From: a bacterium
Lineage (GTDB): Bacteria > UBA10199 > 2-02-FULL-50-16 > JAJFLM01
Direction of reading: 5' to 3'
Assembly (NCBI GenBank): GCA_965216315.1
Contig: CBDCFN010000016.1
Location: forward strand, 1,344,001-1,408,000
DNA length: 64,000 nt
Shown: piece by piece, positions 5,537 through 41,403 of the stretch
How the letters are laid out: every line of letters begins with the position of its first letter
Numbering within the stretch: the stretch's first letter is position 1
Position numbers and translations under genes: made by a program
Notes under the pieces: generated by a model
What the model was told of the DNA's origin: nothing
Database searches by the model: none
Seen by the model: only the letters and a program-made list of their open reading frames with translations

Positions 5537-6281
5537 ACGCGTTATTGGCGAAGAAAAGAAGCAGCTCAAGCAACTGGCTAAAAAACTGGGGTTTTCTTTT
5601 AAACGACTCAGGCTGCTGCGCCGAGCCCTCACGCATCGTTCCTATGCCAATGAGCAAGGCTTTCCCGCCGAGGCTCACAATGAACGACTCGAGTTTCTGG
5701 GAGATGCCGTCCTTGAATTAGCAATCAGTGAACTTCTCATGACGCGCTACCCGGAATTCACCGAAGGAGAACTGTCTAAATTGAGAGCCGCCATCGTCAA
5801 TGAGAAACAACTCGCCGAAATTGCGCGCGTCTATCACATTGGGGACCATTTATTGTTGGGACGCGGAGAAGAACAAACAAACGGCCGAGAAAAACCCTCA
5901 CTTTTGTCTGATGCTTATGAAGCGGTTTTGGGAGCTGCCTATTTAGACCGGGGCTATAAAAGGTCACGTGCCCTGATCGAAAAACATTATAGCCGACTTT
6001 TTGAAAATCGTACGCCCGAATCTTTTTACCTTGATTTTAAGACCGAGTTGCAAGAACGCGTCCAAAGCATCTTTCGCACGATTCCTCAATACCGGCTTAG
6101 AGGGGAACGTGGACCCGACCATCGCAAGACTTTTGAAGTTCAACTCATGATTCGAGATCAAGCGTACGGAACGGGCGTTGGGCATAGTAAAAAAGAAGCC
6201 GAACAAAAGGCGGCCGAACAGGCCCTCAAAAAACTTGAAGAAGAACAAGCGAGCTCGGACAAATCAACGGCGGCACGCTAA
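5520..6281 (+). CDS. rnc: Ribonuclease III
   Basis: ALTHRSY, NERLEFLGDAVL, C-terminal dsRBD; start may be 5526. Confidence 0.97.
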   Translation: MDMWRKRVIGEEKKQLKQLAKKLGFSFKRLRLLRRALTHRSYANEQGFPAEAHNERLEFLGDAVLELAISELLMTRYPEFTEGELSKLRAAIVNEKQLAEIARVYHIGDHLLLGRGEEQTNGREKPSLLSDAYEAVLGAAYLDRGYKRSRALIEKHYSRLFENRTPESFYLDFKTELQERVQSIFRTIPQYRLRGERGPDHRKTFEVQLMIRDQAYGTGVGHSKKEAEQKAAEQALKKLEEEQASSDKSTAAR

Positions 6282-36926: not shown

Positions 36927-37001
<75 letters not shown>

Positions 37002-37307: not shown

Positions 37308-37336
37308 TTGACCACATTGCTCCAATTAAATATAAT
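37308..37336 (+). promoter_or_regulatory. Sigma70-type promoter of the histone-like gene
   Basis: TTGACC-17bp-TATAAT. Confidence 0.75.
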
Positions 37337-37403
37337 TTCGCTTAATTGTGGCAAATCTCGTTTAATTAAACGTGACCACGTGAACGAGAGCTAGGAGGTA
37401 ACA

Positions 37404-37865
37404 ATGGCAGCAAGGAAAAGAAAGGCAGCAGCGAAAAAGAAATCGCCTGCCCGTAAAAAACCGGCGCGCAAAAAGGCGTCGAAAAAGAAAGCCTCTGCAA
37501 GCAAGAAAAAAGTAGCCCGTAAAGCTACTAAGCGGAAGGCGACTAAACGTAAAGCTACCAAGCGTAAGGCAACCAAGCGTAAGGCAACTAAGCGTAAGGC
37601 AACTAAGCGTAAGGCAACCAAGCGTAAGGCAACTAAGCGTAAGGCAACTAAACGTAAGGCAACCAAGCGTAAGGCAACTAAGCGTAAGGCAACCAAGCGT
37701 AAGGCAACCAAGCGTAAGGCAACCAAGCGTAAGGCAACTAAGCGTAAGGCAACTAAACGTAAGGCTACCAAGCGCAAAGCTACCAAGCGCAAAGCGACTA
37801 AACGGAAGGCCACAAAGCGTAAAGCGACTAAACGCAAGGCCACCAAGCGTCGTAAAAAGAGGTAG
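37404..37865 (+). CDS. Histone H1-like basic nucleoid protein with 22 KATKR pentapeptide repeats
   Basis: AGGAGG RBS, promoter and terminator; Lys/Arg/Ala-rich with no acidic residue; synonymous variation among repeats. Confidence 0.88.
   Translation: MAARKRKAAAKKKSPARKKPARKKASKKKASASKKKVARKATKRKATKRKATKRKATKRKATKRKATKRKATKRKATKRKATKRKATKRKATKRKATKRKATKRKATKRKATKRKATKRKATKRKATKRKATKRKATKRKATKRKATKRRKKR
37521..37850 (+). repeat. Coding tandem repeat, 22 x 15 bp
   Basis: AARGCNACHAARCGN units varying only at third codon positions. Confidence 0.95.
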
Positions 37866-37941
37866 AAACGCCTAACTTTGGTTAGGCAGAAACTGCAGCA
37901 TTGGCATTGCCTCCTTGCTGCTATTCAGCTTTCTGTCTCTC

Positions 37942-37977
37942 AACCCCGTGGGATTAATTTCCCACGGGGTTTTTTTA
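37942..37977 (+). terminator. Intrinsic terminator of the histone-like gene
   Basis: aaccccgtggga-ttaatt-tcccacggggtt plus T-run. Confidence 0.92.
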
Positions 37978-38022
37978 TAGGCGAACGCTTGATAATTCAT
38001 CCGGCTTCGCTAACTATACGGC

Positions 38023-38892
38023 ATGGCACATTACTTCTTCGATCTCGATCCGAGCACCCAAACCAATTTACAAAAGCGCTACGCAATTATCCCCATCCCG
38101 TATGAGCGCACCGTTAGTTATGGCAATGGAACCGCGGCGGGACCGCAAGCGATTCTCGACGCGTCACGTCAATTAGAAGCGTATGATGAGGAAGTCAAAA
38201 GTGAAGTCAGTCGACAGATCGGTATCGAGACATTGCCAAGTATTTCATTTGATGAACGGGAAGGGGAGTCGGCTATTCAAATGATTCAACAGCAAGTCGA
38301 ACCCATCGTCGCAAAGCAGCTTATCCCGATAGGCCTAGGAGGCGAGCATACCGTCAGTTTAGGCATTATTCGTCCCTTGATCGCCATTTATCCTGAACTA
38401 CAGGTCGTGCAGATCGATGCCCATTCGGACTTGAGAGACCAATATTTGGATAATTCTTATTCTCACGCCTGTGTCATGCGTCGTGTCCATGAGCTTGGGG
38501 CAAAGATACACGCTGTCGGCATTCGTGCCCAATGCCGAGAAGAAGCTGAGTTTGCCAAGGAGACGGGTATCCACCTTTACTATGACTATCAGCGACGCAA
38601 CAATCCGGACTGGGTTAATGAGTTTATCTCTCACTTGGATCCTTCGCTGCCGGTCTACCTTACCATTGATTGCGATGGCTTTGATCCGGCCGTTTTGCCG
38701 CATACGGGAACACCCGTGCCCGGAGGACTTAATTGGACAGACATGATGGCCTTATGTCGCGTTTTGACACAGTGCTTCACAATCGTCGGTGTTGACGTGG
38801 TCGAGCTGGCACCCAATCAATACAGCCAAGCCTCGGATTTTCTCTGCGCCCAGCTTATCTATAAGTTAATGAGCTACAATGAGGCTAAATAG
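38023..38892 (+). CDS. speB: Agmatinase
   Basis: GGEHTVS, DAHSDLRD, SHAC, TIDCDGFDP, GTPVPGG, DVVELAP. Confidence 0.93.
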   Translation: MAHYFFDLDPSTQTNLQKRYAIIPIPYERTVSYGNGTAAGPQAILDASRQLEAYDEEVKSEVSRQIGIETLPSISFDEREGESAIQMIQQQVEPIVAKQLIPIGLGGEHTVSLGIIRPLIAIYPELQVVQIDAHSDLRDQYLDNSYSHACVMRRVHELGAKIHAVGIRAQCREEAEFAKETGIHLYYDYQRRNNPDWVNEFISHLDPSLPVYLTIDCDGFDPAVLPHTGTPVPGGLNWTDMMALCRVLTQCFTIVGVDVVELAPNQYSQASDFLCAQLIYKLMSYNEAK

Positions 38893-39441: not shown

Positions 39442-41403
39442 TTACGATAGATAAGTATAGCCGGCAAGGGCCTGTTTGTATTCATGGAGAAGATCCATGC
39501 CTGAACTGGAACGGAGCTGGCCGGAGCGGATGGCTTGATCGACCTGGGCCTTGAAGCGGCGGACCAGGTCCTGGGTGTCATATTGGGTATCCTGCAAGAC
39601 CTCGTCGATGGATGAACCCCGCATGACTTCCTCGATATAGTAGCCCTTATCCTCGTTCGCATCGGCATAGACGTGGATCTCATTGACCCGTCCAAACAGA
39701 TTGTGATGGTCTCCCATGATATCCTGGTAGGCCCCTGTCAGGAAGATTCCCAGATAATAGGGTTCATCCCCGATCGCATGAACGGACACGCCCGCCCCAC
39801 TCGCCTCCATTTTGCCCTCGGAATCGCAGGTGATATCCACCAAAGACGCCACGTATTCGGGCTTTTCATTCAGGCGATGAATCGGAACGATGGGAAACAA
39901 CTGATCAATAGCCCAGTTGTCGAGTAAGGACTGGAAGATAGAGAAATTACAGACGTATTGGGACCCCAGGTCGGCTGCCAGCTGAGTAATTTCAGCCGGA
40001 ACGGAGCCCTGTTGCTCACAGCGATGAACGATCATGCCGGCGACGTGCCAATAGAGATCCTCCACCTTGGCTCGCGTTTCCAGATCCATCATGCCGACAT
40101 CAAAAAGACTTAAGGCCTCTTCGCGGATATGATGCAGTTGATGATAGGAACGAACCAAGTCACGGCCGGCTTCGATTTCGCTTAGCAGGCCCAGTATATC
40201 CCGGACCAGGCGGTGTTCCGCATCAAGCGATTGAATTTGCAATAAACGCTCTCCGCGCCCCTTTTCGACGTTTGCAAAGGCTTCGACGAGTAAAACGGCA
40301 TGGGGAGCCACGATAAAGCGACCGCTCTCTGACAAGAGACCGGGATGAGAGACGCGTTCTTCATTACAAATGTCACGCACGCAATTAACGATCGTGCTGG
40401 CGTATTCTTCGACGGAGTAATTCTTCGATGACGCCTGACTCGAGGCCGTGCCATCATAGTCGACGGCCAAGCCCCCGCCGACATCCAGATATTCGAGAGG
40501 AGCCCCCAAATGCACAAATTTCGCATAGTATCGGGTGGCCTCACGCGTCGCCGCCTGAAAAGAACGAATATCCGGTATTTGCGACCCAATATGAAAATGA
40601 ATCATCTTAAAAGCTGAAGCCAGCCCGTGGGATTGCAAGCGCTCCCACGCCGTCAGCGCCTCGGACGCGTTCAGCCCGAATTTCGCACACTCCCCGCTCG
40701 AATCGGACCATTTTCCACTCCCGCGGCTATACAGGCGCATACGAATCCCGAGTTGGGGACAAACTTTGAGTTCGTGAGACAATCGGATAATTCGATCCAC
40801 CTCATCAAGCTTCTCGATGACAATAATGATGGTGCGACCCAAGCGTTGTGCTTGCAGAGCCAACCGAATAAAGGTGTCATCTTTATACCCATTACAAATA
40901 ATGGGTCGTTCCCCATTATCATTAATTGCCAAAGCGGCTACGAGCTCTGCTTTACTCCCTACCTCAAGCCCGAGTTGATAATCCCGTCCGGCTTCGAGTA
41001 TCTCTTCGACAACCTCACGAAGTTGATTGACCTTAACCGGATAAATTCCTTGATAATCATTTTCGTAACCCGCACTGCCAATCGCCCGATCAAAGGCCTG
41101 ATGCACCCTCTTGACGCGCTCCTGCAGTAAGTCCTGAAAACGAATTTGCAACGGAAAAGACAGGCCCTTCTCCTTAGCCTCTTCTGCAATCTCGAGCAGA
41201 GAGACAGGATGACTTTGGCGGCGCGGGTTACAGGTAACCTCTCCCCGCTCGTTGCCGGAAAAATATCCCAGCCCCCATCGATCCATCTTGTATAGAGCTA
41301 TTGAATCCGCCACCGACCAGGCCCGACGTTTAAGCGCCGGCATGGCATCCAGTATTTTAGCTCCTTTGATGGGAGAGCTCTTGTCAGGTTTGAGTATCTT
41401 CAT
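39442..41403 (-). CDS. speA: Biosynthetic arginine decarboxylase
   Basis: YPVKVNQ, GLEVGSKAEL, CNGYKD, HFHIGSQ, DVGGGLAVDYDG, DITCDSEG, GAYQDIMGDHHNLFG. Confidence 0.96.
   Translation of the reverse strand: MKILKPDKSSPIKGAKILDAMPALKRRAWSVADSIALYKMDRWGLGYFSGNERGEVTCNPRRQSHPVSLLEIAEEAKEKGLSFPLQIRFQDLLQERVKRVHQAFDRAIGSAGYENDYQGIYPVKVNQLREVVEEILEAGRDYQLGLEVGSKAELVAALAINDNGERPIICNGYKDDTFIRLALQAQRLGRTIIIVIEKLDEVDRIIRLSHELKVCPQLGIRMRLYSRGSGKWSDSSGECAKFGLNASEALTAWERLQSHGLASAFKMIHFHIGSQIPDIRSFQAATREATRYYAKFVHLGAPLEYLDVGGGLAVDYDGTASSQASSKNYSVEEYASTIVNCVRDICNEERVSHPGLLSESGRFIVAPHAVLLVEAFANVEKGRGERLLQIQSLDAEHRLVRDILGLLSEIEAGRDLVRSYHQLHHIREEALSLFDVGMMDLETRAKVEDLYWHVAGMIVHRCEQQGSVPAEITQLAADLGSQYVCNFSIFQSLLDNWAIDQLFPIVPIHRLNEKPEYVASLVDITCDSEGKMEASGAGVSVHAIGDEPYYLGIFLTGAYQDIMGDHHNLFGRVNEIHVYADANEDKGYYIEEVMRGSSIDEVLQDTQYDTQDLVRRFKAQVDQAIRSGQLRSSSGMDLLHEYKQALAGYTYLS

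Follow-up and report, generated by a model that had tools for sequence, protein, structure and literature searches.

The 3' untranslated region (UTR) of a bacterial gene for a small, very basic, histone H1-like protein carries an element of 30 nt that is complementary to the translation initiation region (TIR) of the same mRNA, and folding of the complete predicted transcript joins the two ends in an interrupted helix that takes in both the Shine-Dalgarno sequence (SD) and the AUG. That the 3' UTR is antisense to its own SD and start codon had been claimed in a preliminary description of the locus and is borne out here. Tentatively, and with somewhat less than even confidence, we read this arrangement as a translational lock that would act in cis between 5' UTR and 3' UTR, as described for icaR, and that would compete with a decoy hairpin in the 3' UTR.

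The gene and its transcription unit

Positions refer to the window, i.e. the whole stretch of 64,000 nucleotides that was analysed, in a genome designated G000; two relatives of the same family are designated G001 and G002. The transcription unit contains the following elements.

37308-37336, + strand: sigma-70-type promoter TTGACC-17-TATAAT (11/12)
37343-37385, + strand: 5' leader with the stem-loop UCUCGUU...AACGAGA (from leader-only folds)
37386-37416, + strand: TIR, consisting of GAGAG, the SD UAGGAGGU, the AUG (37404-37406) and codons 2-5
37404-37865, + strand: H1-like gene, encoding a protein of 153 amino acids with 59% K+R
37869-37887, + strand: small hairpin of 7 bp located where the 3' UTR begins, -9.8 kcal/mol, not conserved in G001
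37886-37936, + strand: local 3' UTR hairpin, -18.1 kcal/mol, with CCUCCU at its apex
37912-37941, + strand: anti-TIR arm, which provides the predicted long-range helix with its 3' strand (from folding; unique in the genome)
37942-37977, + strand: intrinsic terminator with a 12-bp G+C-rich stem (37942-37971) followed by seven U

Judging from the promoter position, transcription would start at about 37343, and the 3' UTR comprises 112 nt (37866-37977). With a near-consensus promoter before it and a strong terminator after it the gene looks monocistronic. Its coding region is made up of a 15-nt repeat that encodes ATKRK and is present in 22 copies (37518-37850; 85% matches). The composition of the product agrees with its earlier description as histone-like, but no curated family matches it (none of the Pfam and none of the NCBIfam models), so that "histone H1-like" is used here as a purely compositional label. 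The 3' side of the leader stem-loop overlaps the GAGAG, which can alternatively pair with the 3' UTR.

Several further observations concern the gene and its surroundings. The number of repeat copies varies among relatives, whose H1-like proteins have 149 and 114 residues, and metagenome contigs with joints inside the ATKRK array skip 330 nt or step back by 65 nt, indicating that the length of the array is probably variable. Just after the AUG a 19-nt sequence is directly duplicated (37406-37442; GGCAGCA..GAAAAGAAA, twice). The word GGCAG is common to the second copy of this duplication and to the 5' arm of the hairpin in the 3' UTR (from 37885), which provides the 3' arm with several possible partners. 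Upstream neighbours are scpA, scpB and, on the opposite strand, a tRNA-Met gene (36927-37001); a homologue of the latter is found in two halves some 650-700 nt apart in three genomes of the class (G012:C8 384255-384976; G018:C31 83-816; G025:C91 20083-20830), which suggests an intron or an insertion inside the tRNA gene of these genomes. Downstream follow an arginase-family (agmatinase-like) gene and a gene for a biosynthetic arginine decarboxylase. A polyamine-synthesis gene lies directly 3' of the H1-like gene in all three genomes of the family: the arginase-family (agmatinase-like) gene in G000 (38023-38892), where the arginine decarboxylase gene adjoins it (39442-41403), and in G001 (L002 1243-2112), and a gene for a pyruvoyl-dependent arginine decarboxylase in G002 (L003 2746-3300). 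The family genomes thus have genes for two kinds of DNA-binding polycation next to each other. The gene for RNase III (rnc) is located within the window at about 5613-5990 (G000:C16:1349613-1349990), and a gene for RNase E/G is also present in G000.

Complementarity and the predicted long-range helix

How do the two ends of the message fit together? Positions 37912-37925 (tccttgctgctatt) and 37403-37416 (aatggcagcaagga) can form 13 Watson-Crick pairs and one G-U pair (G37406-U37922), confirming the 14 consecutive pairs with a single wobble that had been noticed before, and a repeat search returned the same pair of segments (14 nt, 93% complementary). When the 14-mer was searched for in the 64-kb window, with R at the wobble position and at most one mismatch, only these two sites were found with 0.02 expected, and none of 100 shuffled windows contained two or more sites. 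The origin of the 3' element from a repeat family or a mobile element was considered and rejected, as the element is unique in the genome.

Folding of the 37343-37977 transcript, which the preliminary description had named as a check, extends the complementarity to 27 pairs (5+8+14, five of them G-U) between 37386-37416 and 37912-37941, a predicted helix that spans the GAGAG, the SD, the AUG and codons 2-5. The helix is carried by both the minimum free energy structure and the centroid, the z-score of the fold is -3.79 and none of 20 shuffled sequences folds equally well. Pairing probabilities are 0.8-1.0 for 26 of the 27 pairs and 0.52 for the terminal pair (37416-37912), and the SD and the AUG are paired with a probability near 1. 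Within the predicted helix the SD is matched by GCUUUCUG, chiefly through G-U pairs. Since there are many such pairs in the helix, five in G000 and more in G001, the two strands pair in the sense RNA only and do not constitute an inverted repeat at the DNA level. Comparison of split-transcript ensembles yields a gain of -23.7 kcal/mol in G000 when the 5' part and the 3' UTR are allowed contact, and a two-fragment cofold of start region and tail gives a ddG of -21.6 kcal/mol in G000 and of -13.1 kcal/mol in G001. All structural statements made here are equilibrium folding predictions.

The 3' arm has an alternative partner close by. In the local hairpin (37886-37936) it pairs with a 5' arm (GGCAGAAACUGCAGCA) that resembles the TIR (GGCAG...GCAGCA) and thus competes with it for the 3' arm. 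An anti-SD in the loop of a hairpin just before the terminator had been described earlier; the hairpin is indeed predicted and CCUCCU is found at its apex, but the first two C's are engaged in an apical mini-stem of 3 bp (GGC/GCC). Moreover, the second register that had been proposed, with CAUUG opposite CAAUG, CCUCCU opposite AGGAGG and GCU opposite AGC, can be read directly in the sequence of G000 but is not conserved, as CCUCCU sits in a 7-nt insertion that is absent from G001.

Expectation by chance

As a genome-wide null, the start regions of 2518 SD-bearing candidate genes, called crudely as open reading frames of at least 80 amino acids with an SD-like word upstream, were each compared with their own 80-nt downstream region. 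The contiguous helix of 14 bp between own start and own tail is the longest of all (rank 1 of 2518), the next being four genes with 12 bp. Its RNAduplex energy places the own pair only 38th of 2518, since high scores in this measure go to G+C-rich candidates. Searched against 4659 SD-bearing starts, the 3' arm finds its best target in its own TIR (rank 1), albeit with -38.5 as compared to -38.1 for the next target, a difference of 0.4 kcal/mol. In the comparison with shuffled controls that had been proposed at the outset, hybrid energies as good as the natural one were obtained with 3 of 500 dinucleotide-shuffled 3' UTRs and with 5 of 500 shuffled TIRs.

At the level of the whole ensemble, shuffled tails gain -14.8 +/- 3.1 kcal/mol and none of 114 reaches the -23.7 kcal/mol of the natural tail of G000. 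Such shuffled tails nevertheless still pair with the SD-AUG segment with a mean probability of 0.35 in G000, and composition, a purine-rich TIR facing a CU-rich tail, hence explains part of the pairing propensity, and indeed much of it. Taken per gene, the signal corresponds to odds that range, depending on the statistic, from about 1 in 100 down to 1 in several thousand. This is mixed but positive evidence, beyond chance for a single gene or window, though far from overwhelming once very many genes are scanned.

Conservation in relatives

The lineage is poorly sampled, and the relatives available for comparison were the two other genomes of the family and 93 genomes of the class. A protein search over the latter found H1-like genes in G066 and G067 only, which belong to another family, and a protein-profile scan of metagenomes returned four loci, one of them (L042) with a comparable gene. 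Searching with the promoter pattern recovered only the two known relatives among genome contigs and nothing among metagenome contigs, while the TIR pattern with up to three mismatches hit only unrelated genes (groES-like, pyrF-like) in the 93 genomes of the class. In four metagenome runs, contigs of relatives span the promoter and the 5' region and leave the 3' UTR almost uncovered; one X6 metagenome contig joins the ATKRK array to 37928 onward, and no 3' UTR variants usable for covariation were found in these runs.

The 5' end of the transcription unit is well preserved within the family. The -35 and -10 hexamers and TTAATTGT at the presumed transcription start are invariant in G000, G001 and G002, and RNAalifold applied to the three leaders (37343-37392; L002 577-635; L003 2236-2285) predicts 9 pairs, 2 of which are changed on both sides. 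In G001, a member of a different genus, the locus is 74% identical to that of G000, with promoter, leader and TIR nearly the same. Two blocks of its 3' UTR have been preserved while the remainder diverged: one is AGGCAGRAAC, the other is GCUGYUAUU(CA)GCUUUCUGUCUCUC, the anti-TIR arm. The arm is identical at 22 of 25 positions, including the CUCUC, as compared to 7 of 16 in the hairpin apex, and the upper 5' arm of the local hairpin has diverged as well. In G001, the sole relative with a long 3' UTR, no other part of that 3' UTR is as well conserved as the anti-TIR arm.

Folding of the full G001 transcript keeps the helix between the 5' and 3' ends with 7+6+8 to 10 pairs, mostly at probabilities of 0.8-1.0 and weaker at the ends. 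The hybrid energy is matched by 3 of 500 shuffles, and the SD-AUG segment is paired with the tail with a probability of 0.73 as compared to 0.24 for shuffled tails, 3 of 94 of which reach the natural value; the net energy gain is ordinary, being reached by 16 of 94 shuffles. Of the differences between the two genomes, the one substitution of C37921 by U in the arm retains the pairing with the TIR as G-U, and an indel of 2 nt falls within an internal loop of the long-range helix.

The other relatives lack such a signal. The 3' UTR of G002 comprises only 32 nt upstream of the terminator and offers no convincing pairing (probabilities of 0.2-0.5, a gain of -4.7, and a hybrid energy worse than the shuffle mean), and the complementarity is absent from all three of the more distant H1-like genes (G066, G067 and the metagenome locus L042). 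As to conservation of the complementarity in relatives, a point raised in the preliminary description, the anti-start motif and the predicted helix are kept in one of the two family relatives, G001, but not in G002 or in the three H1-like genes from beyond the family. As G000 and G001 are homologous, this conservation is to be counted as a single evolutionary event common to two genera. Occlusion of the SD of G002 by its own 5' leader was considered and rejected as not significant: the pairing probability is 0.69, shuffled leaders give 0.60, and 66 of 200 of them attain the natural value.

Covariation had been another of the checks proposed for the long-range pairing, and here the outcome points elsewhere. 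The TIR is invariant, so that no covariation can support the long-range helix. As regards the two competing structures, the only compensatory change seen between G000 and G001, from G-C to A-U at the C37921/U site, belongs to the local hairpin, which is kept in G001 with a 9-bp base and with a 5-bp upper stem that holds this change and two one-sided ones; one-sided changes of the wobble type number three in the hairpin as a whole. This change supports the hairpin as a real structure and would be neutral for the long-range helix, where a G-C becomes a G-U opposite the invariant TIR. On the other hand, the hairpin model leaves the conserved CUCUC without a partner, and in the long-range fold it pairs with the leader GAGAG. 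The much better conservation of the arm than of its local partner, the pairing of CUCUC with GAGAG and the position of the indel in an internal loop go beyond what would be expected of a mere hairpin. The terminator is conserved in G001, with compensatory changes in its upper stem.

Proposed mechanism and alternative explanations

What the analysis shows is the complementarity, a predicted thermodynamic preference for the long-range helix and an arm conserved in one relative. If the transcript has the ends deduced from promoter and terminator and if the helix forms in vivo, the message might exist in two states that would differ in translation or decay. In one state the tail would be folded on itself, the 3' arm being paired with the TIR-like decoy arm (37886-37911) in the local hairpin, and the mRNA would be translatable. 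In the other state the 30-nt tail element (37912-37941) would anneal to its own TIR (37386-37416) and close the mRNA into a circle-like fold, with SD and AUG buried in the interrupted helix of 27 pairs. Burial of the start site would exclude ribosomes and thereby reduce translation of a protein that is likely to be harmful in excess, and the long duplex may in addition serve as a substrate for RNase III, the gene of which is present. Kinetic considerations count against such a lock, as ribosomes can load before the tail has been made and the local hairpin forms first. They argue that each message starts in the open state, since ribosome loading and hairpin formation both precede the long-range pairing, and the lock would then act later, on full-length messages.

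The most serious rival is that only the local stem-loop (37886-37936) is functional, for example as a barrier against 3' exonucleases or as a protein-binding hairpin in front of the terminator, and that the complementarity to the start is a by-product. TIR and 5' arm of the hairpin are both purine-rich sequences of the GGCAG/GCAGCA type, so that whatever pairs with one of them also pairs with the other, and words of the GGCAG type recur at 37406, 37425 and 37885. The hairpin is conserved between G000 and G001, holds the sole compensatory change together with the one-sided wobble-type changes, is stable (-18.1 kcal/mol) and would be the first to form during transcription. Consistent with such a by-product are also the residual pairing of shuffled CU-rich tails with the purine-rich TIR, the rank of merely 38 of 2518 by hybrid energy and the missing signal in G002 and the distant homologues. 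Against the hairpin as the only functional element speak the conservation of the 3' arm, which is much higher than that of its local partner arm and of the apex, and the conserved CUCUC, which lies outside the local hairpin and yet pairs with the leader GAGAG. Moreover, the contiguous 14-bp helix centred on the AUG is the longest among the 2518 candidate genes, and composition-keeping shuffles reach its hybrid energy in just 3 of 500 cases. Altogether we consider this explanation rather unlikely, though not negligible.

Two other explanations would give the pairing a different role, and we regard both as improbable. The 3' UTR of about 110 nt (37866-37977) could be processed into a small RNA that exerts feedback by acting in trans on the parental TIR, with other mRNAs as further targets perhaps. 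The cofold in trans would be favourable in both genomes by the ddG values given above, the strong terminator hairpin and its U tail would form the 3' end of the fragment as is typical of such RNAs, the fragment would in G000 display an anti-SD at the apex of a hairpin, and 3' UTRs are described as reservoirs of small RNAs (PMC5502269). Against this speak the apical anti-SD, which is not conserved, and the searches for further signs of a small RNA: no internal promoter was found on the + strand, Hfq (Pfam) was found nowhere in G000, a genome that is 98.3% complete, and no Rfam family reached its gathering score, all matches being sub-threshold (anti-hemB with 26.5 bits, NsiR1 with 25.7 bits) and spanning the terminator region from 37898 or 37919 to 37978. 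In addition, the top target of the arm is its own TIR, so that no separate regulon is evident. Alternatively, the pairing could be a clamp that protects the ends of the mRNA and the leader from endo- and exonucleases and has no part in translational repression. The hbs mRNA, which also encodes a nucleoid protein, is reported to have a 14-bp interaction between 5' and 3' UTR that modulates RNase Y cleavage (PMC5737220), and near-consensus promoter, strong SD, 5' stem-loop and strong terminator are hallmarks of a highly expressed, stable message. In hbs, however, the initiating ribosome itself acts as protector, whereas the helix predicted here contains SD and AUG themselves and should exclude ribosomes.

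The cis-acting lock could also be imagined in a more elaborate form, as a self-closing two-state switch through which the protein regulates its own synthesis. Once the highly basic product exceeds the DNA, it would attach to the mRNA that encodes it and promote RNA annealing, taking the 3' arm off its decoy hairpin and onto SD and AUG, and the annealed message would be masked or marked for RNase III. The probability of this variant is very low in our estimation, below that of any of the explanations discussed so far. If it were true, a DNA-condensing protein would set its own level via a clamp between the two ends of its transcript, possibly in connection with a compact-nucleoid stage in this little-known lineage.

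Comparison with known systems

To our knowledge, there are only a few bacterial mRNAs for which control of translation by pairing between 5' and 3' UTR in cis has been established. The 3' end of a full-length type I toxin mRNA, hok for instance, pairs with the 5' region and the message is translationally inert until processed; these mRNAs encode small hydrophobic toxins and are accompanied by an antisense RNA gene. The product here differs in being a protein of 153 amino acids, 59% of them K+R, and a search of the transcription unit for an antisense promoter found none. Chlamydial Hc2 is a histone H1-like protein of the KR-repeat kind, and so, as reported, is AlgP of Pseudomonas (PMC9239181). 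Both resemble the product of the present gene in their low-complexity repeats of Lys, Arg, Ala and Thr and in presumed binding to polyanions or the nucleoid; unlike them, the present protein shows no detectable family membership, and its ATKRK unit and gene neighbourhood are lineage-specific. In Chlamydia the small RNA IhtA is reported to repress translation of hctA, which encodes Hc1 (PMC3469542, PMC4355289). The common features are antisense occlusion of the start region, predicted in the present case, and a small, very basic DNA-condensing protein, whereas IhtA is encoded by a separate gene and acts in trans and the antisense element described here belongs to the transcript of its own gene, with the stop codon before it and the terminator after it. 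The analogies to IhtA and type I toxins that had been drawn in the preliminary description thus share the logic but are more distant than icaR and hbs.

In hbs of Bacillus subtilis a 14-bp interaction of the 5' UTR with the 3' UTR is described as modulating cleavage by RNase Y in the leader (Braun et al., 2017; PMC5737220). The likeness consists in long-range pairing of 14 bp between the UTRs of a nucleoid-protein mRNA, the fate of which is tied to translation initiation. As described, however, the pairing in hbs overlaps the RNase Y site without masking the SD, while SD and AUG are inside the predicted helix here, and the proteins are unrelated, hbs encoding an HU fold and the present gene a low-complexity KR repeat. 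In icaR the motif UCCCCUG of the 3' UTR is reported to pair with the SD, to block initiation and to create a site for RNase III (2013, PMC3868564; reviewed in PMC5502269). The present mRNA resembles icaR in that a segment of the 3' UTR is complementary to its own SD region (27 predicted pairs) and in that the gene for RNase III, which cleaves the icaR duplex, is present in G000. Compared with the UCCCCUG core, the predicted helix is much longer and also takes in the AUG and codons 2-5, its SD is mostly matched by the G-U-rich CUUUCU and not by a C-rich motif, and the 3' UTR of 112 nt contains a competing decoy hairpin and belongs to an uncultured lineage, where it is known from prediction.

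What is described here is at present a well-defined and cheaply testable prediction, not a demonstrated mechanism. As icaR and hbs are both from Firmicutes, the present gene would be a further case outside this phylum, in an uncultured lineage with relatives that are recorded as Deltaproteobacteria or Pseudomonadota, and one in which the product is a histone H1-like polycation and the decoy hairpin is built into the message. Confirmation would suggest that the logic of control between 5' and 3' UTR is more widespread, and that nucleoid-condensing proteins, through their dosage, provide a recurrent reason for such control, as in hbs, hctA and this gene. Among the systems compared, the H1-like mRNA is a probable member of the icaR-type kind, with the longer helix and the decoy hairpin as its particular features.
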